DNA of 64,000 nucleotides, taken from the NCBI GenBank assembly GCA_964505475.1, contig CAZDIJ010000008.1:381-64380 (forward strand). Direction: 5' to 3'. Positions 3,172 through 52,055 of this stretch are shown one piece after another; positions within the stretch are counted from its first letter, which is position 1; the number at the start of each line of letters is the position of its first letter. The stretch is from an uncultured Sulfuricella sp. (GTDB taxonomy: Bacteria > Pseudomonadota > Gammaproteobacteria > Burkholderiales > Sulfuricellaceae). The notes beneath the pieces were generated by a model. It saw nothing but the letters and a program-made list of their open reading frames with translations. It did no database searches and had not been told where the DNA came from. The position numbers and the translations under genes were made by a program.

Positions 3172-3199
3172 GCCGGACGAGGCGTCACCAAGGATGTCG

Positions 3200-3234
3200 C
3201 GGCGCGCGGAGAGCGGCACCACCTCCGCGCGCCG
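3200..3234 (+). terminator. Strong hairpin after the small ORF (possible terminator or attenuator)
   Basis: Perfect 12-bp GC stem (CGGCGCGCGGAG / CTCCGCGCGCCG) with an 11-nt loop. Only a weak, displaced T-run (GATTTTC) follows. Confidence 0.3.
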
Positions 3235-3276
3235 GCCATGTGATTTTCAAACAGCACCATCATAAGGAGAAAAGTC

Positions 3277-3648: not shown

Positions 3649-3716
3649 TCGTAATCACCATCCCGCGCAGGCGCGGCCTCCCCGCCGCTCTGCGCCCCCT
3701 TGCCGGGAGCCGGAAC

Positions 3717-4259: not shown

Positions 4260-4490
4260 CCGTCCCGCCATCCGCGTCCGCACCGGACGCCCCCTCCGCC
4301 TCCGACAAGCATCGGCGGCCGGAGGAAAAAGTGCATAATTCATGGCAATTCTCTAAAATGGCTCCATGATCCCCATCCGCCACCGCGCCCCGGCTTGAAT
4401 TCACCATCAGGTTCCGTTTTCAAGTAGTCCGCGAATGGCTATTTGAAAACAAAATCTTAAGAAACCCACCGTATTTCCAGGAGAGGCACA

Positions 4491-5552: not shown

Positions 5553-5556
5553 GCGC

Positions 5557-7038
5557 TTATCGCAGCCTGGCCACCCAGGCTTCCCCAGCCGGCTTGATGA
5601 CATCGAGAACGGCGGCGGGGTAGAAACCGACGGCCAGGACGATGGCCGTGGCGGCCAGGGCAATCGCCAGTTCGCGCGGACGCAGGTCGGCGGCGTCGGC
5701 AACCACCGGATTGGTGACCGGCCCGAAGAAACCACGGCGGTAAATCCCCAGGAAATAGGCGGCGCCGAGCACCATCGCGAACAAGGCGGCCAAGCCCGCG
5801 CCGGTGTGGGTGTTGAGGGCGGACAACAGGATCAGCAGTTCGGCCGGGAAGCCGCTGGTGCCCGGCAGCCCCATGGTTGCCAGCCCCAGCAGCAGGATGA
5901 AAGTGGCCAACAACGGCATGGAGCGCGCCGCGCCGCCCAGGCTGACGATGTCGGTGGAACCGACGCGATGATGCAGGAAGCCGGTCAGCAGGAACAAGCC
6001 GCCGGCCGCCATGGTGAAATTCAGCAGTTGCAGCACCGCCCCCTGCAAACCTTGCAGGTTGAAGGAACTCAATCCCAGCACCACCAGGCCGACATGGGAC
6101 AGGCTGGAATAGGCCAGCATCTGCCGCAGGTTGGTTTGCGCCAGCGCCGCCACCGCGCCGTACAGCACGGCCACGGTGCCCAGCCCGGCGAACAGCCAGT
6201 GCAGCTCGCGCGCCGCTTCCGGCGCCAGCGGCACGGCAAACCGGATCAGGCCGTAGGCGCCGAGCTTGAGGCCGACCAGCAACGCCGTCACCGCCACCGG
6301 ACCTTCCATCGTCATCACCGGCAGCCAGGTGTGCAAGGGAAACAATGGGGTCTTCACCGCGAAACCGAGCAGCAGCAGCAGGAAAATCATCCATTCGACC
6401 CCGCCCGGCGCCGGCGTGGCCAGCAACGACGGCAGGTCGAAAGCCAGACCCGCGCCGGTTTGCGCCGCGTGGCTGAAGGCCAGCATCAGAAAGCCGATCA
6501 GCAGGGGCACGCCGCCCGCCAGCATGACCAGCGTGTATTTCACCGCGGCATAGCGCCGGTTGGGACCGACTCCCCAAAGACTTACCAGGAAATACAAGGG
6601 CACCAGCGACAGTTCCCAGAACAGGAAGAACAGGATGGTGTCGAGCGAACAGAATATCCCCAGGGTGGTGGTTTCCATCAGCAACAGCAAGCTGTAGTAC
6701 AGGCGCGGCAAGGCATGCACGCTGTTCCACGAGGCCAGGATCACGCCGATGAAGAGTAGCACCGTGGCGGGCAGGAACAGCACCGAGATGCCGTCCACGC
6801 CGACCAGGTAATGGATGTTGAGGGTGGGTATCCAGTCGATTTTTTCCACCAGTTGAAAGCCGGGACGAGCCGGATCGAATTTCGCCACGATCGCCAGGGA
6901 AATCGCCAAGTCGATCAACGCCGTAACCAAGGCGACGCGGCGCGCCCATTCGGGGCGCGGCAGCAGCCAGGCGAGCGCGGCGCCCGCGGGAAGGGTGAGA
7001 AACAGCAGGCTGAGCAGGGGAAAAGCGGCGGCGTCCAT
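5557..7038 (-). CDS. NuoM/NuoN (NdhD)-type proton-translocating antiporter-like subunit, last gene of the DAB-like operon
   Basis: 493-aa polytopic protein with ..PLFPLHTWLPVMTMEGPVAVTALLVGLKLGAYGLIRF..AYSSLSHVG.., typical of the PF00361-type family. Its start lies 1 nt after the preceding stop. Confidence 0.8.
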   Translation of the reverse strand: MDAAAFPLLSLLFLTLPAGAALAWLLPRPEWARRVALVTALIDLAISLAIVAKFDPARPGFQLVEKIDWIPTLNIHYLVGVDGISVLFLPATVLLFIGVILASWNSVHALPRLYYSLLLLMETTTLGIFCSLDTILFFLFWELSLVPLYFLVSLWGVGPNRRYAAVKYTLVMLAGGVPLLIGFLMLAFSHAAQTGAGLAFDLPSLLATPAPGGVEWMIFLLLLLGFAVKTPLFPLHTWLPVMTMEGPVAVTALLVGLKLGAYGLIRFAVPLAPEAARELHWLFAGLGTVAVLYGAVAALAQTNLRQMLAYSSLSHVGLVVLGLSSFNLQGLQGAVLQLLNFTMAAGGLFLLTGFLHHRVGSTDIVSLGGAARSMPLLATFILLLGLATMGLPGTSGFPAELLILLSALNTHTGAGLAALFAMVLGAAYFLGIYRRGFFGPVTNPVVADAADLRPRELAIALAATAIVLAVGFYPAAVLDVIKPAGEAWVARLR

Positions 7039-7039
7039 G

Positions 7040-8551
7040 TCAATGATGTCCGAAATGCGCCGAGAGCGCTTGCAGCGAAGCCTCGACCAGTTTCATCCAG
7101 GGTTCGAGATAAAACCCGGTCACCAGCAGCACCGCCAGAATGCCGCCGGCCACCAGATATTCCATCGGCAAGGTGGCCTCGATCGTACCGGGCGGCCGCC
7201 ATTCCGGGCGCGGCGCCAGGAAGGCGCGCTGGAAGGCCCACAGCAGGAAGCCGGCGGTGACCACGTTACCCAGCGCGGCGGCCACGGTGGGCAGCGCGCC
7301 GAACTTGTCGATGGCCGCCTCCAGCACCAGATGCGCCGCGTCGAAGCCGGGGGTGCCGGGCATGCCGATGATGGAAAAGCCTCCGACCAGAAACGTCATG
7401 CTGAGGAAGGGAATGCGGTCGAACAACCCTCCCAGGCGATCGAGCGAAGTCGTGTGGGTGCGCCGGTAGACGAACCCGACCATGAACAGCAAGGCGGTGG
7501 CGGCCAGGCCGAAATTGACCGCGAGCAGGATGCCGCCCTGGAAGCCGGCGTGATGCAGGCTGAACAGGCCGATGGTAATCAGGCTGGTGTGGCTGACCAC
7601 GGCGAAGGCGATCAGGCGGCGCAAATCCTTTTGCAGGAAGGCGAGGAAGGCGGCGTAGAAAACTCCGGTGGCGGCGAAGGCGACCACATAGTTTTGCCAC
7701 TGGACGACGGCCTCCGGCACCAGCGGAAAAACGAAACGCACCAGCCCGTAGATGCCGACCTTGATGCCCAGCAGCAAAACCGGGGCGATGGCCACGTTGC
7801 CATGCTCGGCCATGAGCGGCAGCCAGCCGTGCATCGGAAACAGAGGGGTGCGGATCGCCAGGCCGTAGAACAGCAGGAAGAACACCACCGAGGACAGCGG
7901 GGCGGCGATGTGGATGGCCGCCAGATCGACCAGATCGAAGCTCCAGCGCCCCCCGGCGGCATCGGCATGGCTCCAGCCCGCCACCAGCACGCCGGCCAGC
8001 AACAATAGCAGCCCGGTGCCCTGGAACTGATAAAAACGCGCCAGCGCCAGGTCTTTTTCCGCCGAGGTGGCCCAGCGCCACAACAGATGCCCGACCAGGC
8101 CGATTTCGATGGCCGAGGCCAGCACGAACCAGAGCAGATTGGTGGTGGTGAGCAGGGAAATCAGCACGCCCTCGATGGCCAGCAAGATTCCGATCAGCCG
8201 GCTGGGTTCGCCGAGTCCGCGCACCAGGCCGTAAATGCTGAGCAGGAAGGCGAGCAACGCGGTGAGCAGCACGAACAGCACCGTCACGCCGTCGGCGGCG
8301 GCATGATAGCCGAACGGTCCGAAGAGATCGACCCGTTCGGCCAGTTGCAGCGCCGGGGAGCCGATGTCGATGCGGCGATAAAGCGTGGCGGCCAGCAGCA
8401 ATTCCGCCAACACCAGGAAGCGCCCCAAGATCACCGCGCCGCGCCGTTCCCCGAGCAGCAGCAGGGCGCCCGCGCCGAGCAGCGGAATGGCTTGCAGGGC
8501 GCCGAGCAACGGAAACCCGGACTGCTGCGCCCAGTGAATTTCAGTCATCAT
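7040..8551 (-). CDS. NuoM (NdhD)-type antiporter-like subunit
   Basis: 503 aa, ..TPLFPMHGWLPLMAEHGNVAIAPVLLLGIKVGIYGLVRF..AFAVVSHTS.. . Confidence 0.8.
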   Translation of the reverse strand: MMTEIHWAQQSGFPLLGALQAIPLLGAGALLLLGERRGAVILGRFLVLAELLLAATLYRRIDIGSPALQLAERVDLFGPFGYHAAADGVTVLFVLLTALLAFLLSIYGLVRGLGEPSRLIGILLAIEGVLISLLTTTNLLWFVLASAIEIGLVGHLLWRWATSAEKDLALARFYQFQGTGLLLLLAGVLVAGWSHADAAGGRWSFDLVDLAAIHIAAPLSSVVFFLLFYGLAIRTPLFPMHGWLPLMAEHGNVAIAPVLLLGIKVGIYGLVRFVFPLVPEAVVQWQNYVVAFAATGVFYAAFLAFLQKDLRRLIAFAVVSHTSLITIGLFSLHHAGFQGGILLAVNFGLAATALLFMVGFVYRRTHTTSLDRLGGLFDRIPFLSMTFLVGGFSIIGMPGTPGFDAAHLVLEAAIDKFGALPTVAAALGNVVTAGFLLWAFQRAFLAPRPEWRPPGTIEATLPMEYLVAGGILAVLLVTGFYLEPWMKLVEASLQALSAHFGHH

Positions 8552-40082: not shown

Positions 40083-40098
40083 TGGCACGGCTGTTGCT
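40083..40098 (+). promoter_or_regulatory. Sigma54 (-24/-12) promoter of the nitrate assimilation operon
   Basis: TGGCACGGCTGTTGCT fits TGGCACG-N4-TTGCW exactly. ~70 nt upstream of the nrtA ATG. Confidence 0.8.
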
Positions 40099-40165
40099 CA
40101 CAAGACAAGCATTGGTTTAGTAGCATTTCATTGACTTGTTTCAATACTTAGATAAGGAGCACAGC

Positions 40166-41443
40166 ATGAGCAACGATACCGTCGGCAAACCGGAAGTCCG
40201 CGTGGACGACAGCAAAAGAACTTTCGTGAAAAAAAGCGCGACCCTGCTCGGCGGCGCAGCGCTGATGTCGCTGGTGCCGCCCGGCGTGCGCAACGCGGCC
40301 TGGGCCGCCGGCTCCGACGCGCCGGAAAAACCCGAATTGAAGGTCGGCTTCATTCCCCTCACCGACTGCGCTTCGGTGGTGATGGCGGCAATGCAGGGTT
40401 TCGACAAGAAGTACGGGATCAAGATCGTTCCCACCAAAGAGGCCTCCTGGGCGGCGGTGCGCGACAAGCTCACCAACGGCGAACTGGATGCCGCCCACGT
40501 GCTGTACGGACTGGTCTATGGCGTGCATCTGGGCATCGGCGGCCCGAAGAAGGACATGTCGGTGCTGATGGCGATCAACAACAATGGCCAGGGCATCACC
40601 CTTTCCAACCAGTTGAAGGACAAGGGCGTCACCGACGGCGCCTCCCTGCGCGCCTTGCTCACCAAGGAAAGCCGCGAATACACCTTCGCCCAGACCTTCC
40701 CCACCGGCACCCATGCGATGTGGCTGTATTACTGGCTGGCGGCGCACGGCATCAACCCCTTCACCGAAGCCAAGACGGTGGTGGTGCCGCCGCCGCAGAT
40801 GGTCGCCAACATGCGCGTCGGCAACATGGACGGCTTCTGCGTCGGCGAACCGTGGAACGCCCGCGCCATTTTCGACAAGATCGGCTTTTCGGCGGCGACC
40901 AGCCAGGACATCTGGAAGGATCACCCGGAAAAGGTGCTCGGCACCACCGCCGAATGGGTGCAGAAGTATCCCAACACCGCCCGCGCCCTGACCGCCGCCG
41001 TGCTGGAAGCCTCGCGCTTCATCGACACCACCGCCAACCGCCACCAGGTCGCCACCACCATCGCCGACAAATCCTACGTCAACGCCCCGGTCGAGGTGAT
41101 CGAAGGGCGCTTCATGGGACATTACGACAACGGCATCGGCAAGAAGTGGGAGGACCCCAACATGATGAGGTTCTACAACGACGGCGCGGTGAATTTCCCC
41201 TACCTCTCCGACGGGATGTGGTTCCTCACCCAGCACAAGCGCTGGGGTCTGCTCAAGGATGACCCGGATTACCTGGGCGTTGCCAAGAAGATCAACCAGA
41301 TCGACATCTACAAGCAGGCCGCCGCGCTCACCAAGACGCCGGTTCCCAAGGAAGTCATGCGTTCCTCCAAGCTGATCGACGGCGTGGTGTGGGACGGCAA
41401 GGATCCCAAGGCCTACGCCGCCGGTTTCAAGGTCAGGGTTTGA
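40166..41443 (+). CDS. nrtA: Nitrate/nitrite ABC transporter substrate-binding protein (NrtA/CmpA/NasF family), Tat signal
   Basis: ATG 40166 after AAGGAG. Tat-like signal ..KRTFVKKSATLLGGAALMSL.. . ..LKVGFIPLTDCASVVMA..WLYYWLAAHGINP.. is typical of NrtA. Confidence 0.88.
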   Translation: MSNDTVGKPEVRVDDSKRTFVKKSATLLGGAALMSLVPPGVRNAAWAAGSDAPEKPELKVGFIPLTDCASVVMAAMQGFDKKYGIKIVPTKEASWAAVRDKLTNGELDAAHVLYGLVYGVHLGIGGPKKDMSVLMAINNNGQGITLSNQLKDKGVTDGASLRALLTKESREYTFAQTFPTGTHAMWLYYWLAAHGINPFTEAKTVVVPPPQMVANMRVGNMDGFCVGEPWNARAIFDKIGFSAATSQDIWKDHPEKVLGTTAEWVQKYPNTARALTAAVLEASRFIDTTANRHQVATTIADKSYVNAPVEVIEGRFMGHYDNGIGKKWEDPNMMRFYNDGAVNFPYLSDGMWFLTQHKRWGLLKDDPDYLGVAKKINQIDIYKQAAALTKTPVPKEVMRSSKLIDGVVWDGKDPKAYAAGFKVRV

Positions 41444-41512
41444 TGAAAAACCTCCCGGTTGGCTGGCTACAACGGCAGCCGGCCGGGACGGAACAAGCGA
41501 AAGGAAGTGGAA

Positions 41513-42412
41513 ATGAGCGCACTCGCCGCAACGACAAACGATTTGGATGAAACGATGGACACCCCCAAGCCCCATGCCTCTCCCAAGGCGCCCAGTGAAA
41601 TCAAGGCCGCCACGCCGCCGCTCGACAAACCTTCCGCCGGACAGATGCTCGGGACGGTGTTCCGGTGGCTGCTGCCGCCGGTGCTGGGGTTGCTGCTGTT
41701 CATCGGCATCTGGGCCTTGGTGTCGCAATCCAGCCCGCAACTGCCGACCCCGGCGAAGACCTGGAACTCAGCGGTGCAACTCTTCAGCGACCCGTTTTAC
41801 CGCAAGGGTCCCAACGACCAGGGCATCGGCTGGAACATCCTCGCCTCGCTGGAGCGGGTCGGCATCGGCTTCGGCATGGCGGCCTTGATCGGCATCCCGC
41901 TGGGTTTCATGATCGGGCGTTTCCCCTTCCTCTCCGCCATGACCGCGCCGGTCATCAGCCTGTTGCGCCCGGTATCGCCGCTCGCCTGGCTGCCCATCGG
42001 CCTGCTGGTATTCAAGGCGGCCAACCCGGCGGCGATCTGGGTGATCTTCATCTCCAGCATCTGGCCGATGATTATCAACACCGCCGTGGGCGTGAACCGC
42101 ATCCCCCAGGACTATATGAACGTCGCCAAGGTGCTCAACCTGTCGGAGTGGAAAATCTTCACCAAGATCCTCTTCCCCGCCGTGCTGCCCTACATGATCA
42201 CCGGCATCCGTCTCTCCATCGGCGTCGCCTGGCTGGTGATCGTCGCCGCGGAAATGCTCACCGGCGGCGTAGGCATCGGCTTCTGGGTGTGGGACGAATG
42301 GAACAACCTCAACGTCGAACACATCATCATCGCCATCTTCGTGGTCGGCATCGTCGGCCTGCTGCTGGAACAGGCGCTGGTGATGCTGGCGAAGCGATTC
42401 AGTTATGAATGA
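41513..42412 (+). CDS. nrtB: Nitrate ABC transporter permease
   Basis: ATG 41513 after GGAAGTGGA. ..GIGWNILASLERVGIGFGMAALIGIPLGFMIGR..PVSPLAWLPIGL.. is a binding-protein-dependent permease signature. Confidence 0.88.
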   Translation: MSALAATTNDLDETMDTPKPHASPKAPSEIKAATPPLDKPSAGQMLGTVFRWLLPPVLGLLLFIGIWALVSQSSPQLPTPAKTWNSAVQLFSDPFYRKGPNDQGIGWNILASLERVGIGFGMAALIGIPLGFMIGRFPFLSAMTAPVISLLRPVSPLAWLPIGLLVFKAANPAAIWVIFISSIWPMIINTAVGVNRIPQDYMNVAKVLNLSEWKIFTKILFPAVLPYMITGIRLSIGVAWLVIVAAEMLTGGVGIGFWVWDEWNNLNVEHIIIAIFVVGIVGLLLEQALVMLAKRFSYE

Positions 42413-42414
42413 TT

Positions 42415-42473
42415 TTTAACCACGGGGAGCACGGGGGAAAACCCGTTTTTTATCCCCGTGCTCCCCGTGGTAA
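42415..42473. repeat. Family C minimal hairpin (two termini back to back)
   Basis: TTAACCACGGGGAGCACGGGGGAAAACCCGTTTTTTATCCCCGTGCTCCCCGTGGTAA, between nrtB and the ATPase gene. Confidence 0.7.
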
Positions 42474-42493
42474 TAGGTAATAAAGGAAGAGCT

Positions 42494-43285
42494 ATGGAAA
42501 AGTACGTTCAAGTCGAAAACGTCCAAATGGTTTTCGCCACCAAGAAAGGCCCGTTCGTCGCGCTGCGCGACATCGACCTCAACATCGCCCAGGGGGAATT
42601 CATCTCCCTGATCGGCCACTCGGGCTGCGGCAAATCGACCCTGCTCAATCTGGTGGCGGGACTGACCACCCCGAGCAACGGCGCGATGCTCTGCGCCGGG
42701 CGGGAAATCGCCGGCCCCGGACCGGAGCGCGCGGTGGTGTTCCAGAACCACAGCCTGCTGCCCTGGCTGACCTGCTTTGAAAACGTCTATCTGGCGGTGG
42801 AGCGGGTATTCGGCCGCGCCGAAAGCAAGGCGACCATGAAGAAGCGCACCCACGAGGCGCTCGCCCTGGTCGGCCTGACCCACGCCGAGCACAAGCACCC
42901 CCACGAGATTTCCGGCGGCATGAAGCAGCGCGTCGGCATCGCCCGCGCCCTGTCGATGCAGCCCAAGGTGCTGCTGATGGACGAACCCTTCGGCGCGCTC
43001 GACGCCCTGACCCGCGCCCACCTCCAGGACGAGCTGATGAAGATCGCCATGGCGACCCACAGCACCGTGGTCATGGTCACCCACGACGTGGACGAAGCGG
43101 TGCTGCTGTCCGACCGCATCGTCATGCTGACCAACGGCCCGGCGGCGACCATCGGCGAAATCCTCCACGTCCAACTGGAGCGCCCGCGCGAGCGGCTGGC
43201 GCTGGCCAACGACCCGAAATACCACGAATACCGTGGCGCGGTGCTGGAATTTTTGTACCACCGCCAACTGCGCCCGGCGGCTTGA
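42494..43285 (+). CDS. Nitrate ABC transporter ATP-binding protein (NrtD/NasD type)
   Basis: ATG 42494 after AGGAAGAG. Walker A GHSGCGKST, signature SGGMKQRVGIAR, Walker B LLMDEP. Confidence 0.88.
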   Translation: MEKYVQVENVQMVFATKKGPFVALRDIDLNIAQGEFISLIGHSGCGKSTLLNLVAGLTTPSNGAMLCAGREIAGPGPERAVVFQNHSLLPWLTCFENVYLAVERVFGRAESKATMKKRTHEALALVGLTHAEHKHPHEISGGMKQRVGIARALSMQPKVLLMDEPFGALDALTRAHLQDELMKIAMATHSTVVMVTHDVDEAVLLSDRIVMLTNGPAATIGEILHVQLERPRERLALANDPKYHEYRGAVLEFLYHRQLRPAA

Positions 43286-43296
43286 GAAATACAAAA

Positions 43297-43420
43297 ATGT
43301 AGGTTGGGTTAGGCGCGGTTTTTCGCGCCGTAACCCAACAAACCCAAAACCTCCTTTAAAAACGGTTTGAAGGATCAGGTCTTGTTGGGTTACGGCGCAC
43401 GCGCCTAACCCAACCTACAT
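43297..43420. repeat. Family D REP-like nested palindrome
   Basis: Outer arms ATGTAGGTTGGGTTAGGCGCG / CGCGCCTAACCCAACCTACAT. Inner arms CGCGCCGTAACCCAACAA / CTTGTTGGGTTACGGCGCAC. Confidence 0.75.
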
Positions 43421-43444: not shown

Positions 43445-43765
43445 ATGAACGACTGGACCAAAATCTGCACCCTCGAAGACATCCCGCGCCAAGGCAGCAG
43501 GGTGGTGGAAAGCGCCCAGGGACGCATCGCGGTGTTCCGCACCCACGACGACGCGGTGTTCGCCCTTGCAGACCGTTGCCCGCATCGCGGCGGACCGCTG
43601 TCGCAGGGCATCGTATGCGGCTGCAAGGTCACTTGTCCGCTGCACAACTGGAACATCCAGCTCGCCGACGGCCAGGCGGTCGCCCCGGACGTGGGACATG
43701 CCGATTCCTACCCGGTGAAGGTGGAGGATAGCGTCGTATTTGTAGCACTTAGCAGTTCTACCTAG
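43445..43765 (+). CDS. nirD: Nitrite reductase [NAD(P)H] small subunit (Rieske-like, cluster-less type)
   Basis: ..ICTLEDIPRQGSRVV....IAVFRT.DDAVFALADRCPHRGGPLSQGIV.....CPLHNWNI.. . Confidence 0.85.
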   Translation: MNDWTKICTLEDIPRQGSRVVESAQGRIAVFRTHDDAVFALADRCPHRGGPLSQGIVCGCKVTCPLHNWNIQLADGQAVAPDVGHADSYPVKVEDSVVFVALSSST

Positions 43766-43994: not shown

Positions 43995-46571
43995 TTGGAA
44001 AAAATGAAACTGGTGCTGGTCGGCAACGGCATGGCCGGGATGCGCGCCGCCGAGGAACTGCTCAAGCTCGCCCCCGACCTCTACGACATCACGGTGTTCG
44101 GCGCCGAGCCGCACCCCAACTACAACCGCATCATGCTCTCTCCGCTGCTGGCGGGCGAACAGACGGTGCGGGACATCATCATCAACGATCTCGGCTGGTA
44201 CGCGGAGCACGGCATCACCCTGCACCTCGACAAGAAGGTGGTGAAGATCGACCGCAAGGCCTGCACCGTCACCGCCGCCGACGGCACCAGCGCCGCCTAC
44301 GACCGGCTGATTCTCGCCACCGGCTCAAAGCCCTTCATCCTCCCGGTGCCGGGCAACGAACTGGACGGCGTGGTGAGCTTCCGCGACATCGCCGATGTCG
44401 AGGCGATGGTCGCCGCATCGCAACAATACCGGCACGCGGTGGTCATCGGCGGCGGCCTGCTCGGCCTGGAAGCCGCCTACGGACTGAAGCTGCGCGGCAT
44501 GGACGTGACCGTGGTGCATCTCGCGCCCTGGCTGATGGAACGCCAACTCGACCGCAGCGCCGCCGGGCTGCTGCAAAAGAGTCTGGAGGAAAAGGGCCTC
44601 AAATTCCTCCTGGAAAAACGCACCGAGAAACTCCTCCCCGCGCTTCACACCTCGGCCGCCACGACGGCATCGCCTGACTCCCCCCTTTGCAAAAGGGGGG
44701 CGGGGGGGGATTTCAGCGGTGGTGGTGAAACGACCTCTGACGAAATCCCCCCTAACCCCCCTTTTGCAAAGGGGGGAATGAATACGCAGCGCGTCGCCGC
44801 AGTGCGCTTCCAGGACGGTTCGGAAATCCCCGCCGATCTGGTGGTGATGGCCGCCGGCATCCTCCCCGACGACGCCCTGGCGCGCTCCGCCGGCATCTAT
44901 TGCGAGCGCGGCATCGTGGTCAGCGACACCCTCCAGACCTTCGATCCGCGCATCTACGCGCTGGGCGAATGCGTCAGCCATCGCGGCATCAATTACGGGC
45001 TGGTCGCCCCGCTCTTTGAAATGGCGAAAGTGTGCGCCAACCATCTGGCGCGGATGGGCATCGCCCGCTACAGCGGCACGGTGACTTCCACCAAGCTCAA
45101 GGTCACCGGCATCGAACTGTTCTCGGCGGGTGATTTCAGCGGCAACGAGCGCAGCGAGGAACTGGTGTTTGCGGACGCCGCCGCCGGCATCTACAAAAAG
45201 CTGGTGCTGGAAAACAACCGCATCAAGGGCGCGGTGCTCTACGGCGACAGCGTGGACGGCAGTTGGTACTTCCAGTTGATGCGCGAGGGCGCGGACGTAT
45301 CCGCGTTCCGCCGCACCCTGTTGTTCGGCCAGGCGCATCTCGGCGATTCCGGCCACAACCCGGAAACCCGCGTCGCTTCTTTACCCGACAGCGCCGAAAT
45401 CTGCGGCTGCAACGGCGTGTGCAAGGGCGACATCGTCAAGGCAATCCGCGACAAGAATCTCTACACCCTCGACGAAGTGCGCTCCCACACCAAGGCCTCG
45501 GCCTCCTGCGGCTCCTGCACCGGGCTGGTGGAATCGCTGCTGGCGCACACCCTGGGCGGCGATTATTCCGAATCGCCGAACAAGAAGCCGCTGTGCAAAT
45601 GCACCGACGCCACCCACGACAAAGTGCGCGCCGCCATCGCCGAACACGGTTTCAAAACCATGGAAGCCGTGCGCGCCCACTTCGAGTGGAAGACCCCCGA
45701 CGGCTGCCCGACCTGCCGCACCGCGCTCAATTACTACCTGCTGTGCGCCTGGCCGCTGGAATACCGCGACGACCCGCAATCGCGCTATATCAACGAGCGC
45801 GCCCACGGCAACATTCAAAAGGACGGCAGCTACTCGGTGGTGCCGCGCCTCTTCGGCGGGATGTGTACGCCGGATCAATTGCGCGCCATCGCCGATGTGG
45901 CCGACAAGTTCCAGGTGCCGGAAATGAAGGTCACGGGCGGCCAGCGCATCGACCTGTTCGGCATCAAGAAGGAACAGCTCCCGGCGATGTGGAAAGACCT
46001 CAGCGACGCCGGCTTCGTCTCCGGCCACGCCTATGGCAAGGCGATGCGCACCGTCAAGACCTGCGTCGGCAAGACCTGGTGCCGCTTCGGCACCCAGGAT
46101 TCGACCGGGCTGGGCGTGAAACTGGAGGAACTCACCTGGGGTTCGTGGATGCCGCACAAATTCAAGCTCGCCGTCTCCGGCTGCCCGCGCAACTGCGCCG
46201 AGGCGACCATCAAGGACTTCGGCGTGGTGTGCGTGGATTCCGGCTACGAATTGCACGTCGGCGGCAACGGCGGCATCAAGGTGCGCGTCACCGACCTGCT
46301 GGCCAAGGTGGAAAGCGAAGCGGAAGTGCTGGAATACTGCGGCGCCTTTTGCCAACTCTACCGCGAGGACGCCCATTACCTGGAGCGCACCGCCCCGTGG
46401 ATAGAGCGCGTCGGCCTGGAGAAACTCAAGGCCGCCATCGTCGCCGACCCGGAGAAGCGCAAGGCGCTCCATGCCCGCTTCCTCGAATCGCAGCAACCGG
46501 CGCAGATCGACCCGTGGAAGGAACGGGCGAACGGAGTGCAGGCCGGGGAGTTCGCGGTGCTGAGGGGATAA
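43995..46571 (+). CDS. nirB: Nitrite reductase [NAD(P)H] large subunit
   Basis: N-terminal LVLVGNGMAG FAD/NAD fold, BFD-like CGCNGVCKG, and sirohaem/4Fe-4S motifs ..TCVGKTWCRFG.. and ..SGCPRNCAE.. . Carries an in-frame repeat insertion at 44676..44779. Confidence 0.92.
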   Translation: MEKMKLVLVGNGMAGMRAAEELLKLAPDLYDITVFGAEPHPNYNRIMLSPLLAGEQTVRDIIINDLGWYAEHGITLHLDKKVVKIDRKACTVTAADGTSAAYDRLILATGSKPFILPVPGNELDGVVSFRDIADVEAMVAASQQYRHAVVIGGGLLGLEAAYGLKLRGMDVTVVHLAPWLMERQLDRSAAGLLQKSLEEKGLKFLLEKRTEKLLPALHTSAATTASPDSPLCKRGAGGDFSGGGETTSDEIPPNPPFAKGGMNTQRVAAVRFQDGSEIPADLVVMAAGILPDDALARSAGIYCERGIVVSDTLQTFDPRIYALGECVSHRGINYGLVAPLFEMAKVCANHLARMGIARYSGTVTSTKLKVTGIELFSAGDFSGNERSEELVFADAAAGIYKKLVLENNRIKGAVLYGDSVDGSWYFQLMREGADVSAFRRTLLFGQAHLGDSGHNPETRVASLPDSAEICGCNGVCKGDIVKAIRDKNLYTLDEVRSHTKASASCGSCTGLVESLLAHTLGGDYSESPNKKPLCKCTDATHDKVRAAIAEHGFKTMEAVRAHFEWKTPDGCPTCRTALNYYLLCAWPLEYRDDPQSRYINERAHGNIQKDGSYSVVPRLFGGMCTPDQLRAIADVADKFQVPEMKVTGGQRIDLFGIKKEQLPAMWKDLSDAGFVSGHAYGKAMRTVKTCVGKTWCRFGTQDSTGLGVKLEELTWGSWMPHKFKLAVSGCPRNCAEATIKDFGVVCVDSGYELHVGGNGGIKVRVTDLLAKVESEAEVLEYCGAFCQLYREDAHYLERTAPWIERVGLEKLKAAIVADPEKRKALHARFLESQQPAQIDPWKERANGVQAGEFAVLRG
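44676..44779. repeat. Palindromic repeat (CCCCCTTTGCAAAGGGGGG type) inserted in frame within nirB
   Basis: TCCCCCCTTTGCAAAAGGGGGGCGGGGGGGGATTTC...GAAATCCCCCCTAACCCCCCTTTTGCAAAGGGGGGA. A related half-unit is intergenic at ~29635..29660. Translated as ..SPLCKRGAGGDFSGGGETTSDEIPPNPPFAKGG.. . Confidence 0.75.
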
Positions 46572-46575
46572 CGAA

Positions 46576-46618
46576 ATGTAGGTTGGGTTAGGCGCATGCG
46601 CCGTAACCCAACCTGCAT
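46576..46618. repeat. Family D REP-like hairpin
   Basis: ATGTAGGTTGGGTTAGGCGCATGCGCCGTAACCCAACCTGCAT, between nirB and nasA. Confidence 0.75.
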
Positions 46619-46634
46619 GACGTAAGGAGGAATC

Positions 46635-48839
46635 ATGTTATTCGGCAGAACCCAGAAAAACCCCATCAAGATCGCCGACAAGGGCGTGATGGAGTGGCGC
46701 TACGCCACGTGCGGCTATTGCTCGACCGGCTGTTCCATCGAGGTCGGCCTCGACGCGGACGGCAAGCCGGTGTCGTCGCGTGGCGTGGCGGATGCCGACG
46801 TGAACCGGGGCAAGCTGTGTCTGAAGGGGCTGTTCGAGCACGAGCTGTTCAGCTCCGCCGGACGCGGCACGCAACCGCTGATCCGCGACCACTGGCACCA
46901 GTCCTGGCAGGCGACGGATTGGACCAGGGCGCTGGACAAGCTGCACGATGAAATCCGCCGCGTCCAGGCCAAGCATGGGGCGGACTCTTTTGCCATCATC
47001 TCCACCGGGCAGATGTTGACCGAGGAGTTCTACACCCTCGGCAAGCTCACCCGCGGCCTGATCGGCACCAACAATTACGACGGCAACACCACCCTGTGCA
47101 TGTCGTCGGCGGTGTCCGGCTACAAGCGCTCTTTCGGCTCGGACGGCCCGCCCGGTTGTTACGAGGATTTCGAGCACACCGACTGCCTGATCGCCTGGGG
47201 TTCCAACCTGCCCGAGCAGCACCCGATCATCTACTGGCGCATGAAGGAGGCGCAGGAGAAGCGCGGGTTTCCATTGATCGTGGTCGATCCGCGCGTCACC
47301 ATGCTGGCGCAGAACGCCCATATCCATCTGGCGATCACCCCCGGCACCGACGTGGTGCTGCAAAACGCGCTGATGCACGTCATTTTCGCCGAAGGGCTGG
47401 AAGACCAGCGCTACATCGACGCCAACACCCACGGCATCGCCGAACTGCGCGCGCTGGTCGCCCAGTACGACCCGGTCACTGCGTCGAAAATCTGCGGCAT
47501 CGACGAGGACACCATCCGCGTGGTGGCGCGCACCTTCGCCAAAGCTGGTGCGGCCATGCAAATCTGGACGATGGGCATCAACCAGTCCACCCACGGCTCC
47601 GACGGCGTAGTCGGCATCAACAACCTCGCCCTGATTACCGGCAACATTGGCAAGCCGGGCGGCACCTCGCTATCCATCACCGGCCAGTGCAACGCGATGG
47701 GTACGCGCGAGTGGTCGTCGTGCTCGGGGCTGCCCAACTACCGCGTTCTGGAAAACCTGCAGCACCGCGAGGAAGTGGCGAAATTCTGGAACGTCGATCC
47801 CGAATTTTTCCCCAAGAAACGGGGCATGTACCAGACCGACATTTATCAGGCGATGGAGGCCGGGCAGATCAAGGGCATGTGGCTGATCGCCACCAACCCG
47901 CTGTCGTCGCTGCCCAACACGGCGCGCATCCGCAAGGCGATGGAGAAACTGGAATTCTGCTGCGTGCAGGACTGCTATCAGGACACCGAAAGCGCGCAGT
48001 ACGCCCACCTCTACCTGCCCGCCGGAACCTGGGCGGAAAAGGAGGGCGTGATGACCAACACCGAGCGGCGCATCAATCTCATCAACCCCCTCGCCACCCC
48101 GCCCGGCGAGGCCAAACCCGATTTGTGGATATTCAACCGGGTGGCGGAGCGTTTCAATAGCGATGGCAAAGTGAAGTTCCCGGAAAAAGCCGCCGACGTG
48201 TTTCTGGAAATGGGCGAGCTGTCGAAAGGCCGCCTGGCGGACATCTCCGGCATGAACCACGAACTGCTGGAAAAGAATCGCGGCGTGCAGTGGCCTTACA
48301 CCGCCGAACAAGCGGCGCAAGGCATCGCCCCGCCCAAGGGCGGCAAACGCCTGTATAGCGAGGACGGCGTATTCAGTTATCCCGATGGCCGCGCCAACCT
48401 GATCCCGCTGCCCTTCATCGACAACAACGAAGTACCCGACGCAGCCTTCCCCTTCTGGCTCAACACCGGGCGGCTCATCGAGCACTGGCACGGGCGCACC
48501 AAGACCGGCAAGATCGGCAACAACAACAAGTTCAGCCCGATCCCCTTCATCGAGATCAACCCCGACGCGGCGGCGGAACTGGGTATTGCGCGCGGCGACT
48601 ATGTGCGCCTGGTATCGCGCCGCTCCGACGCGGTGGCGATGGCCATGCCCACCCAGCGGGTGGCGAAGAACGCGCTGTTCCTGCCTTTCCATTTTCACGA
48701 CTGCGCCAACCGCCTGACGCTGGGACTGCTCGACCCGCACTCGCGCCAGCCCGCTTACAAGCAGTCGGCGGTGAGGATCGAGAAGATTGCCGATCAAGTC
48801 GCAGCGGCACGGTTGAGCAAGGAAATGCGCAAGTTTTAA
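46635..48839 (+). CDS. nasA: Assimilatory nitrate reductase catalytic subunit (molybdopterin oxidoreductase, NasA/NarB type)
   Basis: AAGGAGG RBS. No twin-arginine signal. N-terminal CGYCSTGCS...GKLCLKG 4Fe-4S motif. Bis-MGD enzyme body; 734 aa with no C-terminal 2Fe-2S extension. Confidence 0.88.
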   Translation: MLFGRTQKNPIKIADKGVMEWRYATCGYCSTGCSIEVGLDADGKPVSSRGVADADVNRGKLCLKGLFEHELFSSAGRGTQPLIRDHWHQSWQATDWTRALDKLHDEIRRVQAKHGADSFAIISTGQMLTEEFYTLGKLTRGLIGTNNYDGNTTLCMSSAVSGYKRSFGSDGPPGCYEDFEHTDCLIAWGSNLPEQHPIIYWRMKEAQEKRGFPLIVVDPRVTMLAQNAHIHLAITPGTDVVLQNALMHVIFAEGLEDQRYIDANTHGIAELRALVAQYDPVTASKICGIDEDTIRVVARTFAKAGAAMQIWTMGINQSTHGSDGVVGINNLALITGNIGKPGGTSLSITGQCNAMGTREWSSCSGLPNYRVLENLQHREEVAKFWNVDPEFFPKKRGMYQTDIYQAMEAGQIKGMWLIATNPLSSLPNTARIRKAMEKLEFCCVQDCYQDTESAQYAHLYLPAGTWAEKEGVMTNTERRINLINPLATPPGEAKPDLWIFNRVAERFNSDGKVKFPEKAADVFLEMGELSKGRLADISGMNHELLEKNRGVQWPYTAEQAAQGIAPPKGGKRLYSEDGVFSYPDGRANLIPLPFIDNNEVPDAAFPFWLNTGRLIEHWHGRTKTGKIGNNNKFSPIPFIEINPDAAAELGIARGDYVRLVSRRSDAVAMAMPTQRVAKNALFLPFHFHDCANRLTLGLLDPHSRQPAYKQSAVRIEKIADQVAAARLSKEMRKF

Positions 48840-48858
48840 TTTTCATAGGCCGACAAGT

Positions 48859-48966
48859 CCCCTCTCCCGCAGGCGGGAGAGGGTTAGGGTGAGGGAATAT
48901 CGGGATGCGAATCCGCCCCGGACTCCCTCACCCCCGGCCCCTCCCCCGCCTGCGGGGGAGGGGAGC
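48859..48966. repeat. GC-rich palindromic repeat pair (family B) between nasA and the DmsBC-like gene
   Basis: CCCCTCTCCCGCAGGCGGGAGAGGGTTAGGGTGAGGG ... CCCTCACCCCCGGCCCCTCCCCCGCCTGCGGGGGAGGGGAG. Confidence 0.7.
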
Positions 48967-48984
48967 AAACCGTGGAGAAGCGAA

Positions 48985-50868
48985 ATGTACCAAGCCCGAG
49001 ACAACGAACCCGCTTACGCCTGCCTCGACGATCCGGCCTGCCGCACGCAGAACCGCTACGGCAAATCCATCGAAACCGTCGCGCCCGGCGACCCGCGCCG
49101 CGGACAAACCCTCGCCATCAACGGCGACCCCGCCGTCGGCGCCAACCCCAACCGCTACAAGCAGCATGGCTTCTACTTCAACGCCGACAACTGCATCGCC
49201 TGCCACGCCTGCGAGGCGGCCTGCTCGGAGAAGAACGACAACCCCGCGCACCTGGCCTTCCGCTCGGTGGGCTTCGTCGAGGGCGGCAGCTATCCGAACA
49301 TGGCGCGCGTCAATATTTCATTGGCCTGCAACCACTGCGACGACCCGGTGTGCCTGAAGGGCTGCCCGACCCGCGCCTACACCAAGTTCGCCGAATACGG
49401 CGCGGTGCTGCAAGACCCCGACATCTGCTTCGGCTGCGGCTACTGCACCTGGGTGTGCCCCTACAACGCGCCGCAGCTCGACCCGGTGAAGGGACAGGTG
49501 ACCAAGTGCAATATGTGCGTCGATCGCCTCGAAGTCGGCCTGAAACCCGCCTGCGCCGCGGCCTGCCTGGGCAAGGCGCTGGATTTCGGGGTGATCGAGA
49601 ACATCCCGGAAGGGCGCAGCCAGGCTCGGATCGACATCCCAGGTTTTCCCAGCCCGGAGATCACCCACCCCAACGTGCGCTTCCAGCAGACCCGCAGCCT
49701 GCCGCGCGACATGCTGCGGGTGGACAGCGTGCCGCTCAAATACCACCGCGACGACGCTGGCGGCGCCTACCGCCCGGAGCTCGATCCCAAGCACGGTTTC
49801 AAGCGCGAGTGGAATCTGCGCAAACTGCTCGGTTCCCACGAAAACGCCCACATCGCCTTCACTCTGAGCGCCCAGGCGGTGATGGGCGCCTTCCTGCTGC
49901 TCACCCTGGGGGCGGCGGCATTCGCCCCGCTGGCGTCCTTCAATGCCAGCCCGGCTTTCCTGCCGGCGCTGGCGGCGATGGTGGGGCTGATGGGCGCAGG
50001 CCTGTTCAAGCTCAACATGCATCTGGGCAAACCGCACCGTTTTTACCGGGGGTTCTACAACCTCAAGCACTCACCGGTCAGCCGCGAAATCGCCGGAGTA
50101 TCGGCGTTTTTCGCCGGACTGTCGGGCTATGCCCTGCTTGCCCTGTTCGACCGCCCGCCGGCCGCGCTGCAAACCTTGTGCGCGGGAATCGGCCTCGCCG
50201 GCATGGCTTTCGGCGGCTATTACATGATTAAGCTCTACCTCATCCCGGCGCGCCCCTTCTGGAACCACTGGCATACCGGCGCGGCGTTCGCCGGCTCCGC
50301 GCTGTCGCTCGGTGCGCCGCTGCTGGGGCTGATCGCACTGGCGGCCGGAGCCGCGGCGCCGGAACTGGGACGCCTGCTGGCCGCCGTGGCGGGGGTGGGG
50401 TTGGCGCTGGAAGGGGCGGGATTGATCGCCCACGCCCGCCGCCTGCGTACCCAGGAAAGCGAAGGCGCAGCCTCGTTCTACGAGCAGAGCACCACTTTCG
50501 GCTGCTCCTATCGGCTGCGCAACATCCTGCTCGGCGCAGCCCTGCTGCTGGCCTTGTTCCTCGCTTTCGCGGACGGCCAGAACCAGGTTTTGTTCGTACC
50601 GCTGGCGCTGTTGGCGCTGTTCCAAGCCATCCTCGGGCGGGCGCTGTTCTACGTGCCGGTGATCCCCACCACCCTGCCGGGCGCGTTCTTCTGGCGCAAC
50701 CCCGGCTTCGTCGAGCACGCCCGCGAAACCGGCCTGGCCGCCATGCCGCAACTCGGCGTGGCGTATCAGCGCCACCATGCCTTCCGGCTCGGCGAATTGC
50801 TGGATACGCTGGCGAAAACCCCGCTCCGGGAAAAACTCGCCCAAATGAAAAGGGTGTTTACCGGGTGA
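48985..50868 (+). CDS. Fusion of a DmsB/NrfC-type four-cluster ferredoxin with a DmsC-like polytopic membrane anchor
   Basis: ATG 48985 after GGAGAAG. Four cluster motifs: CIACHACEAAC, CNHCDDPVCLKGCP, CFGCGYCTWVCP and CNMCVDRL..CAAAC. From about residue 300 onward there are multiple hydrophobic helices. No signal peptide. Confidence 0.75.
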   Translation: MYQARDNEPAYACLDDPACRTQNRYGKSIETVAPGDPRRGQTLAINGDPAVGANPNRYKQHGFYFNADNCIACHACEAACSEKNDNPAHLAFRSVGFVEGGSYPNMARVNISLACNHCDDPVCLKGCPTRAYTKFAEYGAVLQDPDICFGCGYCTWVCPYNAPQLDPVKGQVTKCNMCVDRLEVGLKPACAAACLGKALDFGVIENIPEGRSQARIDIPGFPSPEITHPNVRFQQTRSLPRDMLRVDSVPLKYHRDDAGGAYRPELDPKHGFKREWNLRKLLGSHENAHIAFTLSAQAVMGAFLLLTLGAAAFAPLASFNASPAFLPALAAMVGLMGAGLFKLNMHLGKPHRFYRGFYNLKHSPVSREIAGVSAFFAGLSGYALLALFDRPPAALQTLCAGIGLAGMAFGGYYMIKLYLIPARPFWNHWHTGAAFAGSALSLGAPLLGLIALAAGAAAPELGRLLAAVAGVGLALEGAGLIAHARRLRTQESEGAASFYEQSTTFGCSYRLRNILLGAALLLALFLAFADGQNQVLFVPLALLALFQAILGRALFYVPVIPTTLPGAFFWRNPGFVEHARETGLAAMPQLGVAYQRHHAFRLGELLDTLAKTPLREKLAQMKRVFTG

Positions 50869-50904: not shown

Positions 50905-51453
50905 TCAAAACCAGATTTCCGGGTAACGCCGCGACGCCGGAATATTGTTGACCAGCAGCGCCACCGCCAGCAGGATCAGGGGTCCCACGGCGGCGGGCAT
51001 CAGCACGTACCAGAAACCCAGATCGTGTATCTCGGCGGAACCGATCACCGCGATCAAGGCCGTGGCGCCGCCGGGCGGATGCAGCGTCCGGGTGGCGTGC
51101 ATCAGGGCGATGGCGCTGGCGACCGCCAGCGCTTCCGCGAGCCAGGGATAGGGATGGAACAGCTTCCAGCAAATGACGCCGACGATGGCGGAAAGCACGT
51201 GCCCGCCCACCAGATTGCGCGGCTGCGCCAAGGGGCTGCGCACCGCGCCGTAGACCAGCACGGCGGAGGCGCCGAAAGAGCCGATCATCAGCGACAGATC
51301 GGTTCCGCCGAAAAAGAGCCGATCCACCCAGGCCACCCCGGCGATGCCGAGGAAGCCGCCGATCCACGACCAGACCATTTCTTCGTTGCTGACCCGCGGC
51401 GGGCTGCCGCGAGTGGTGCCGCGCATCTTGCGAAAATACTCGGGGATTTTCAC
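50905..51453 (-). CDS. HPP-family membrane protein (candidate nitrite transporter)
   Basis: ..GASAVLVYGAVRSPLAQPRNLVGGHVLSAIVG..ALMHATRTLHPPGGATAL.. contains the HPP motif. The GTG start overlaps the CBS gene stop (GTGA). Confidence 0.75.
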   Translation of the reverse strand: MKIPEYFRKMRGTTRGSPPRVSNEEMVWSWIGGFLGIAGVAWVDRLFFGGTDLSLMIGSFGASAVLVYGAVRSPLAQPRNLVGGHVLSAIVGVICWKLFHPYPWLAEALAVASAIALMHATRTLHPPGGATALIAVIGSAEIHDLGFWYVLMPAAVGPLILLAVALLVNNIPASRRYPEIWF

Positions 51454-52055
51454 CGCGACTCTTCCAGGCGGTAGGCGGCAAAAAAATCCTTGCGCAGCAG
51501 CAAGCCGCGCAGGCGGCCAGCGTCGTCCACAACCGGCATGCCGCGTCCGCCGTGCCGGTGGAAGGCCGCGACGATTTCCCCGAACCCGGCATCGCCAGCC
51601 ACCGTCACGGCGGGAGCGGTCATCGCCGCGCCCACCGTCGTCTCGTGGCAACGGTGCTTGAATTCAAAGCCGCCGTCCAGCATGCCCAGCAGCAACTCCA
51701 GGAAAGTATCCACCTTGAGCCGCCGCAGGAAGTCGGTCTCGGTAAGCATCCCGATCACGTGGTTTTCGCCGTCCACCACGGGCAGCCCCTTACAGCCGGA
51801 GCGCACCAGCGCCCTGGCGGCCTCATCGAGGGGCATGCCGGGAAGCAGGGGGGGTATCTCCGCCCGCATCAGGGTTCCCGCCCTGACGTTGCCGAACAGG
51901 CGTTCCAGCGCATGGTAATGCGCCAGGTGATAGATGGTGCGGAAATCTTCCGTGGTGATGTCGATGTAACCGGGAATGCGCCGCATCGCATCCAGGATGT
52001 CCCCGTCGGTCAACGCCATCTCCGGCGCGGGATTCTGGTTAGTGGTCTCTTCCAT
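51450..52055 (-). CDS. CBS-domain pair protein
   Basis: Two CBS-like repeats (..LPVVDGENHVIGMLTETDFLRRL.. and ..MPVVDDAGRLRGLLLRKDFF..). Translationally coupled to the HPP gene. Confidence 0.75.
   Translation of the reverse strand: MEETTNQNPAPEMALTDGDILDAMRRIPGYIDITTEDFRTIYHLAHYHALERLFGNVRAGTLMRAEIPPLLPGMPLDEAARALVRSGCKGLPVVDGENHVIGMLTETDFLRRLKVDTFLELLLGMLDGGFEFKHRCHETTVGAAMTAPAVTVAGDAGFGEIVAAFHRHGGRGMPVVDDAGRLRGLLLRKDFFAAYRLEESR

Follow-up and report, generated by a model that had tools for sequence, protein, structure and literature searches.

How does a cytoplasmic nitrate reductase obtain its electrons when its conserved genetic partner is not a ferredoxin, a flavodoxin or an NADH reductase but a membrane protein related to dimethyl sulfoxide (DMSO) reductase? 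This question is raised by two neighbouring genes of an uncultured Sulfuricella sp. (Pseudomonadota; Gammaproteobacteria; Burkholderiales; Sulfuricellaceae; GenBank assembly GCA_964505475.1). They occupy positions 46635–50868 of a 64,000-nucleotide (nt) stretch of contig CAZDIJ010000008.1 (positions 381 to 64,380 of the forward strand), which we call the window and whose numbering is used throughout. The first gene encodes a 734-residue molybdoenzyme resembling assimilatory nitrate reductases (Nas), and the second a 627-residue fusion of a DmsB-like Fe-S protein with a DmsC-like membrane anchor. Textbooks, and reviews as late as one of 2025 (PMC12300631), list three types of nitrate reductase only, NAR, NAS and NAP, and a 2020 phylogenomic study associates no member of the Nas/Nap/Aio/Fdh clade with canonical four-cluster or anchor subunits (PMC7331816). 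An initial annotation of the window had proposed a cytoplasmic Nas with a membrane-anchored, quinol-fed electron-input module, and all checks of this proposal that could be computed came out favourable. Here we report that well over a thousand bacterial species conserve this pairing and that it is routinely misannotated. We put at about 0.68 the probability that the two proteins would form a two-subunit, membrane-bound, cytoplasm-facing quinol:nitrate oxidoreductase catalysing the first step of nitrate assimilation.

Results

The molybdoenzyme gene (46635–48839, + strand) encodes a predicted cytoplasmic, Nas-type nitrate reductase with a molybdenum-bis(pyranopterin guanine dinucleotide) (Mo-bisPGD) cofactor, as judged from Pfam domains, solved relatives and trees. 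The Pfam scan found Molybdop_Fe4S4 (residues 19–70), Molybdopterin (79–506) and Molydop_binding (607–710) and no others; in particular, neither a BFD 2Fe-2S nor a flavin domain was detected. The cysteines of the N-terminal cluster FS0 are C26/C29/C33/C62, and neither a twin-arginine motif nor a hydrophobic h-region is present in the N-terminus, MLFGRTQKNPIKIADKGVMEWRYATC, or in those of orthologues. Domains and N-terminus thus agree with the initial description of an enzyme with a Nas-type FS0 cluster and with neither a twin-arginine translocation (Tat) signal nor a C-terminal 2Fe-2S or flavin domain. At the active site, the Mo ligand is C155 in TTLCMSSAV (Cys155-Met156), accompanied by Arg358. 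Among relatives of solved structure, the monomeric NapA of Desulfovibrio desulfuricans scores best (2NAP, 438 bits), and its Mo-ligand Cys-Met and active-site Arg align with these residues. Both TTLCMSSAV and NAMG-TRE have aligned counterparts in Nas and Nap sequences, whereas formate dehydrogenase H (FdhF) has Sec/Cys-His (Sec, selenocysteine) at that place. Identity is 34–40% to conventional NasA/NarB, 30% to Escherichia coli NapA, 29% to FdhF and 22% to DmsA. The protein reaches no NCBIfam equivalog cutoff, those of the nitrate reductase models included; the scores are 525 bits for Fdh-alpha (the best raw score; cutoff 666), 463 for NasC (cutoff 1100) and 444 for haloarchaeal NasA (cutoff 1000).

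In neighbour-joining (NJ) trees, which are quick distance trees and not rigorous phylogenies, all fusion-adjacent molybdoenzymes fall into one clade, sister to conventional Nas, with members in Pseudomonadota, Nitrospirota, Acidobacteriota, Actinomycetota, Campylobacterota, Polyangiales, Omnitrophota and Latescibacterota. With its CM(S/A)SA motif and Arg, the molybdoenzyme is predicted to be a nitrate reductase of the Nas/Nap kind in a clade of its own and not a formate dehydrogenase, a placement in line with the initial annotation. The nearest relatives of both proteins are found in Gallionellaceae and Sulfuricella genomes (molybdoenzyme identity 93% and 92%), which points to a betaproteobacterial lithotroph of this group as the source of the window. 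Residues 1–25 (46635–46709) form a conserved, signal-less extension ahead of the FS0 motif that runs through the whole fusion-partnered clade and is missing from conventional NasA; it reads MLFGR..KNPIKIADKGV.EW in Proteobacteria and comprises ~40 residues in Sulfurimonas and Latescibacterota. This extension is a candidate docking element for the fusion.

The fusion gene (48985–50868, + strand) begins with an ATG 145 nt past the molybdoenzyme stop codon. Its domains, homologues and structure model point to an electron-input subunit with a predicted N-in/C-in topology. The initial reading as a DmsB-DmsC fusion with four Cys groups held up in the Pfam scan, which finds Fer4_11 (residues 112–203, E 2e-21) and the DmsC family PF04976 (residues 283–556, E 3.4e-20); likewise, no signal peptide was found on the protein. 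The four-cluster ferredoxin domain, of DmsB/PsrB-like type (residues 59–205; 49159–49599, + strand), has DMSO_dmsB as its best NCBIfam model and contains the groups C70/73/76/80, C115/118/123/127, C148/151/154/158 and C175/178/190/194; identity of the Fe-S half to E. coli DmsB is 38%. The DmsC/PsrC-like domain, with eight helices and putatively quinol-binding (residues 287–559; 49843–50661, + strand), was delimited from the model helices and the DmsC alignment. It aligns with E. coli DmsC over transmembrane helices 1–4 (TM1–4) at 33% identity, and DmsC His65 and Glu87 correspond to His346 (codon 50020–50022) and Glu368 (codon 50086–50088), both in the TM2–TM3 loop, on the predicted cytoplasmic side. 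In E. coli DmsC these two residues are needed for quinol oxidation, and their mutation blocks quinol oxidation or binding (PMC8076601). All 16 cluster cysteines, His346 and Glu368 are invariant in 93/93 fusion homologues, aligned at 40–84% identity.

The initial annotation had named a frameshift artefact joining two genes as a possible pitfall, and this was rejected. Related loci each contain a single open reading frame (ORF) wherever examined, and a word-indexed search returned more than 3,500 full-length homologues (~600–680 residues); the fusion is therefore real and without frameshift, a conserved single ORF in thousands of sequences. The top 120 homologues are 67–84% identical, 598–681 residues long and each a single ORF. 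An exhaustive HMMER search of 1.84 billion cluster representatives gave 469 clusters at E ≤ 1e-30, many of them full-length fusions with 30–58% identity. The plasmid collection held no full-length fusion, and the best molybdoenzyme relatives in it were conventional Nas (37–40% identity). Two other readings of the 5′ end of the gene were also discarded. A longer ORF starting at GTG 48889 was not retained, given that the added stretch is a REP-like (repetitive extragenic palindromic) palindrome and that orthologues begin at the ATG, at the MF/MY..RxNEP position. A hidden Tat motif, PRRG at residues 36–39, is not conserved and is not followed by an h-region.

An AlphaFold model of the fusion based on the 93-sequence alignment has eight TM helices, a mean predicted local distance difference test (pLDDT) of 81.6 and a predicted template modelling score (pTM) of 0.83. 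The pLDDT is mostly >90 in helices and lower in connecting loops. With 25 close homologues the membrane domain was already good and the Fe-S domain had a pLDDT <50, which improved with the 93-sequence alignment that includes the Nitrospirota and Oceanospirillales clade. In Foldseek, the best hits of the model's two halves are chains B and C of the menaquinone-bound crystal structure of polysulfide reductase, 2VPW (2vpw_B, E 6.5e-6 and TM-score 0.63; 2vpw_C, TM-score 0.60). The tail past TM8 (residues 560–627; 50662–50868) lies outside the DmsC homology, has low model confidence and is predicted to be cytoplasmic; it carries a highly conserved motif, PTTMPGAFFWRN.GF.EHARE.GLA.MPQ.GV, and could make contact with the Fe-S domain or with the catalytic subunit.

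On which side of the membrane the module sits is indicated by its positive charges. Across the 93 homologues, the loops on the Fe-S side (the segment before TM1, the TM2–3, TM4–5 and TM6–7 loops and the C-terminal tail) carry a mean of 17.7 Lys and Arg residues, against 0.6 in the four opposite loops, a ~28-fold difference (0.144 versus 0.018 per residue); the bias was also computed on 25 sequences. E. coli DmsC has basic TM1–2 (KGDLRAEAQQR) and TM3–4 (MLKKLSPALR) loops, whereas the matching loops of the fusion have 0 and 1 basic residues, and the quinol-site loop has 5 basic residues in the fusion versus 2 in DmsC. Because of this bias, and because both proteins lack an export signal, the Fe-S domain is placed in the cytoplasm and not in the periplasm, which is the outcome that the initial proposal depended on. 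Fe-S domain and quinol site are accordingly predicted to face the cytoplasm, inverted with respect to E. coli DmsC. In both the fusion and DmsC, the DmsC-like domain has its N-terminus on the membrane side where the Fe-S protein sits; fusing B to C is therefore geometrically simple, with the whole module flipped.

The two genes travel together. The fusion search matched 447 GTDB species-representative genomes, and where the upstream DNA was long enough, 71/72 loci have the molybdoenzyme gene immediately upstream on the same strand, at a median gap of 60 nt. The reciprocal search with the molybdoenzyme matched 322 genomes, with the fusion downstream in 70/71 loci. A second clade, in at least 570 genomes of Nitrospirota, Oceanospirillales, Methylophaga, Methylocaldum and others, has the same gene order. 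When the three locus sets from Pseudomonadota and Nitrospirota are combined, the pair is adjacent in 210/211 loci, and the identities of both proteins to the window pair correlate across these sets (r = 0.92). In a third, distant clade of at least 594 genomes (Acidobacteriota, Acidimicrobiales, Campylobacterota, Polyangiales, Omnitrophota and Latescibacterota) the genes are paired in 67/72 loci in a reversed order: fusion, molybdoenzyme, nirB, nirD. The neighbourhood survey called for by the initial annotation thus yielded a nearly universal pairing that crosses phyla.

At most loci the pair is accompanied by nirBD and/or nrtABC, with nirD and nirB adjacent in 148 surveyed loci. Several genomes of Thiotrichaceae, Leucothrix and Cocleimonas have the pair alone among unrelated housekeeping genes, and it is therefore a self-contained module. 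Many hosts are sulfur oxidizers, tubeworm or clam symbionts or large sulfur bacteria, and some aerobic heterotrophs and methylotrophs carry the pair as well, among them Oleispira, Ketobacter, Litoribacillus and Methylophaga.

In some clusters the fusion-partnered enzyme occurs together with a conventional NasA. The conventional paralogues in L043 (2528–5320) and L070 (11598–14588) have a C-terminal BFD [2Fe-2S] domain, and those in L212, L213, L218, L221 and L238 were assigned by similarity only. In Methylophaga and Motiliproteus, a gene for a flavoprotein resembling the N-terminus of NirB precedes the conventional NasA. Such clusters place two differently powered nitrate reductases next to each other. 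As for annotation, the fusion is misnamed ‘aspartate carbamoyltransferase’ in several NCBI/UniRef records (Endoriftia, Escarpia symbionts, Nitrospirales and Oleiphilus), which looks like a propagated error, and other records are named ‘DMSO reductase anchor/iron-sulfur subunit’.

In the window, Pfam and NCBIfam scans of the encoded proteins show the pair at the end of the + strand gene row nrtABC-nirD-nirB-molybdoenzyme gene-fusion gene, which comes after the ATP synthase epsilon gene and is bounded at the opposite end by a convergent CBS/HPP gene pair. A sigma-54 (−24/−12) promoter-like site, TGGCACggctgTTGC (40083–40097, + strand), is located 70 nt 5′ of the nrtA ATG and is the sole exact match to TGGCAC-N5-TTGC within the 64-kb window. 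Seven other loci have a similar sigma-54 consensus 54–94 nt 5′ of the molybdoenzyme gene; six of them are without adjacent nirBD, and in L024 the end of nirD is 835 nt upstream. The reading frame of nrtA, for the periplasmic nitrate-binding protein of an ABC transporter (40136–41443, + strand; Pfam NMT1_2, E 3.4e-106), has its probable start at ATG 40167, preceded by the ribosome-binding site AAGGAG. It is followed on the same strand by the ABC permease gene nrtB (41459–42412; BPD_transp_1) and the ABC ATPase gene nrtC (42458–43285; ABC_tran).

Next in the row are the two genes of an NAD(P)H nitrite reductase. The Rieske-type small subunit NirD (43445–43765, + strand) was identified by CPHRGGPL...CPLHNW in its translation and by orthologues that adjoin nirB in related loci. 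The large subunit NirB (43995–46571, + strand) scores 914 bits against NCBIfam TIGR02374 (cutoff 578). The initial statement that the operon has no nasC-like reductase gene needs one qualification: the FAD/NADH protein NirB and the Rieske protein NirD are encoded directly upstream of the molybdoenzyme, and proteins of this kind feed the nitrate reductase in systems of the Paracoccus type. The nirB gene contains an in-frame 99-nt REP-like palindrome (44679–44777; repeat I1, with 48-nt arms that are 83% complementary), which inserts ~50 residues (…SPLCKRGAGGDFSGGGETTSDEIPPNPPFAKGG…) in the N-terminal flavoprotein (Pyr_redox_2) region. NirB has 858 residues here versus ~805 in orthologues, and its TIGR02374 match is broken into two stretches. 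The insertion may be tolerated by the protein, or it may be an assembly or mobile-element artefact.

REP-like palindromes also occupy three of the five intergenic spacers of the operon (43297–43420, 46571–46623 and 48858–48964). The nrtC-nirD and nirB-molybdoenzyme spacers have the motif ATGTAGGTTGGGTTA…TAACCCAACCTAC in common, whereas the 145-nt molybdoenzyme-fusion spacer has a different, GC-rich REP-like double palindrome (48858–48964, no strand assigned) made of the inverted repeats I2 (26-nt arms, 92% complementary) and I6. These palindromes may influence mRNA stability or segmental decay. Beyond the fusion gene, a CBS-pair protein (51450–52055) and an HPP-family membrane protein (PF04982, ~50905–51430) are encoded convergently on the minus strand. 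HPP proteins are nitrite transporters in cyanobacteria and plastids. The two genes were considered as part of the system and dismissed, as they are not conserved beside nitrate reductase genes in other loci.

Discussion

In the mechanism we propose, quinol would be oxidized at the cytoplasm-side His346/Glu368 site, and its two electrons would travel via the fused DmsB-like domain's four [4Fe-4S] clusters to FS0. From there they would reach the Mo-bisPGD site (Cys155), where nitrate imported by NrtABC would be reduced, and NirBD would reduce the resulting nitrite to ammonium. The pathway would spend quinol-level reductant and spare NAD(P)H or ferredoxin, in line with the large number of lithoautotrophic hosts. 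The step is strongly downhill, from quinol at ~+0.1 V (menaquinol −0.07 V) to nitrate/nitrite at +0.42 V. The reaction is predicted to be electroneutral, unlike that of NarGHI, because the quinol and nitrate sites would both lie on the membrane's N side and the anchor is haem-free. We infer complex formation, quinol as the donor, the direction of electron flow and electroneutrality from the conserved residues and the pairing. With slightly more reserve than we attach to this function, we also consider it probable that the pair represents a fourth architectural class among the nitrate reductases of prokaryotes, next to Nar, Nap and soluble Nas. The class would be haem-free, cytoplasm-facing, quinol-dependent and assimilatory, would combine a distinct Nas clade with an inverted, fused DmsBC, and would span about eight phyla or more, with species numbering well over a thousand.

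Each half of this arrangement has well-known counterparts. The catalytic subunit resembles conventional NasA/NasC/NarB in its catalytic fold, FS0 motif, Cys-Met and Arg, cytoplasmic location and company of nitrate transporter and nirBD genes. It differs in that it is without the BFD 2Fe-2S/flavin domain, has an extra N-terminal segment, is only 34–40% identical and appears to be partnered by the membrane-bound DmsBC fusion. With E. coli DmsABC the fusion shares the four-cluster 16-Cys protein, the haem-free eight-helix anchor and the His and Glu of the quinol site, but B and C are one chain here and separate polypeptides there. The module is also inverted towards the cytoplasm with swapped loop charges, and its partner is a Nas-type enzyme without a Tat signal instead of a Tat-exported enzyme of the DmsA type (type II/III). 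Thermus PsrABC (2VPW), the best structural match for both halves, offers a template in which an Fe-S wire leads to a haem-free quinol site; Psr, however, faces the periplasm, consists of separate subunits and has another catalytic subunit and substrate. A precedent for an inverted anchor is the sulfite dehydrogenase SoeABC, the single described NrfD/DmsC-type molybdoenzyme complex proposed to face the cytoplasm, whose SoeC shares His65 and Glu87 with DmsC (PMC8076601). In SoeABC the subunits are separate and electrons flow in the opposite direction, from sulfite to quinone. Derivation of the fusion from SoeBC is not supported by the one example compared, the SoeB/SoeC of Azospirillum encoded beside xsc: the fusion scores 100/30 bits against these and 139/47 bits against E. 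coli DmsB/DmsC, and because of this lower similarity it does not seem to be a simply recruited SoeBC.

Other nitrate reductases resemble the pair in function more than in their parts. NarGHI also carries out a quinol-to-nitrate reaction with a cytoplasmic active site and a four-cluster subunit, and it serves assimilation in some actinobacteria as well. NarG, however, is an Asp-ligated type II enzyme, and NarI is a di-haem cytochrome b that oxidizes quinol at the outer face and makes the reaction electrogenic; the anchors are not homologous. The NCBIfam narG and narH models give 40 and 54 bits here, and the Pfam scan detected no NarI-type cytochrome b domain, the anchor being DmsC-type. NapA with NapG/NapH (E. 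coli napAGH) likewise represents a Nas-related enzyme fed from the quinol pool via a poly-ferredoxin and a membrane protein, but Nap reaches the periplasm by Tat export, NapH and DmsC are unrelated, and the cytochromes NapB and NapC are usually involved. In the NasC-NasG-NasB system of Paracoccus, a Nas-type enzyme is encoded beside NirB-like and Rieske NirD-like proteins; the work of Gates et al. in 2011 is said to describe this system as soluble, NADH-driven and without a membrane subunit. The present pair thus has a Nas-like physiology and an upside-down, DmsBC/PsrBC-like electron input, and lacks defining features of both families.

Several observations sit uneasily with quinol-driven nitrate assimilation. 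The benefit of sparing NAD(P)H explains neither the marine heterotroph carriers nor the clusters that retain a conventional NADH-type NasA, and the adjacency of nirB and nirD in most loci provides possible electron donors, as with NasB/NasG and NasC in Paracoccus. The centres of conventional Nas, such as Synechococcus NarB, are low-potential, and a quinol-driven Nas would need retuned potentials. The single exception of the reciprocal search, L152 (a metagenome-assembled genome (MAG) of Cocleimonas; 3001–8202), has a molybdoenzyme that is 83.5% identical and no fusion within 3 kb downstream. AT-rich unrelated sequence stands in place of the fusion, this is the sole such case among close molybdoenzyme orthologues, and it could be a rearrangement or a MAG chimera. 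Five distant fusions from Campylobacterota (L294, L301, L303, L310 and L323) are also without an adjacent molybdoenzyme; those of L294 and L301 adjoin chemotaxis genes (CheA, CheW and MCP) and that of L323 adjoins signalling (response-regulator GGDEF/EAL) and ABC-transporter genes. Finally, the Fe-S domain in the 93-sequence model is only moderately confident (pLDDT 43–80).

Of the other explanations, the one closest to ours accepts the same architecture and quinol-to-nitrate chemistry and assigns them a mainly dissimilatory role, in the disposal of excess electrons from the quinol pool or in nitrate ammonification through NirBD; a dual role is possible. The sulfur-oxidizing, symbiotic and large sulfur bacterial hosts, which are many, handle nitrate as an oxidant, NirBD serves both assimilation and fermentative ammonification (PMC5728499), and in clusters that also contain a BFD-type NasA the pair might do another job. 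We nevertheless regard this role as unlikely, given that the operon opens with the ATP-driven NrtABC behind a sigma-54 consensus, which is typical of Ntr-controlled assimilation, and that sigma-54-like sites are also found ahead of stand-alone pairs. Moreover, two sites that face the same compartment predict no energy conservation, and the pair is present in aerobic heterotrophs and methylotrophs. A different possibility is that NirB and NirD supply the molybdoenzyme with electrons from NADH, comparable to NasB/NasG and NasC in Paracoccus, and that the fusion is an accessory tether, a redox sensor or an overflow route. The nirBD genes are directly upstream in the window and adjacent in the 148 loci noted above, but many genomes have the pair without them, the fusion is nearly always adjacent and co-diverges with the enzyme, and the molybdoenzyme is without the BFD 2Fe-2S domain of the NADH-linked NasA paralogues. 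An inert tether would also not need invariant cluster ligands and quinol-site residues, and we find this possibility hard to sustain.

It is very doubtful that the substrate of the molybdoenzyme is not nitrate but, for example, chlorate, selenate or formate, or that the enzyme works in the oxidative direction with electrons passing to quinone. The best raw NCBIfam score is that of Fdh-alpha and falls short of its cutoff, as do the scores of the nitrate reductase models. The CM(S/A)SA motif and Arg are those of Nas and Nap, however, and not the Sec/Cys-His of formate dehydrogenases, and the linkage to nitrate transporter and nitrite reductase genes is consistent across phyla. Nitrite oxidation with quinone as the acceptor would also run uphill. 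Least probable of all, in our judgement, is a classical Dms-like complex facing the periplasm and exported by an unrecognized route, even though the named proteins nearest to the two halves, E. coli DmsB and DmsC, are parts of a complex that faces the periplasm (PMC8076601). There is no Tat or Sec signal on the proteins, a cofactor-loaded N-terminal domain of ~285 residues would have to cross the membrane, the positive-inside rule strongly opposes this orientation, and both the NirBD partner and the NrtABC importer imply cytoplasmic nitrate.

All parts of the proposed quinol:nitrate oxidoreductase are known modules. A search of the openly searchable full-text literature, with subscription-only literature outside its scope, found no description of NasA combined with DmsBC or with a membrane anchor. 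The combination of a Nas-type enzyme with a fused, inverted DmsBC, and its scale, therefore appear to be undescribed in that literature. The pairing of NasA-type and fusion genes contradicts, at a large scale, the generalization that members of the clade are without such subunits (PMC7331816). As the fusion is misannotated, genome-based reconstructions may wrongly infer DMSO respiration or miss the electron donor for nitrate assimilation. The module would also be a second, independent upside-down anchor of the DmsC/NrfD type after SoeABC, useful for testing ideas about proton pathways. Cultured hosts exist, among them Azohydromonas lata NBRC 102462, Caldimonas tepidiphila, Litoribacillus peritrichatus JCM 17551, Sulfuricella sp. 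T08, Sedimenticola thiotaurini and Methylophaga, which makes the hypothesis directly testable. If it is true, the first step of nitrate assimilation would be paid from the quinone pool and not from NAD(P)H or ferredoxin, which would change the energy bookkeeping of the organisms involved. Among them are sulfur- and iron-oxidizing lithoautotrophs, chemosynthetic symbionts, methanotrophs and Nitrospirota, for which NAD(P)H is costly, as it is made by reverse electron flow, and quinol is cheap.

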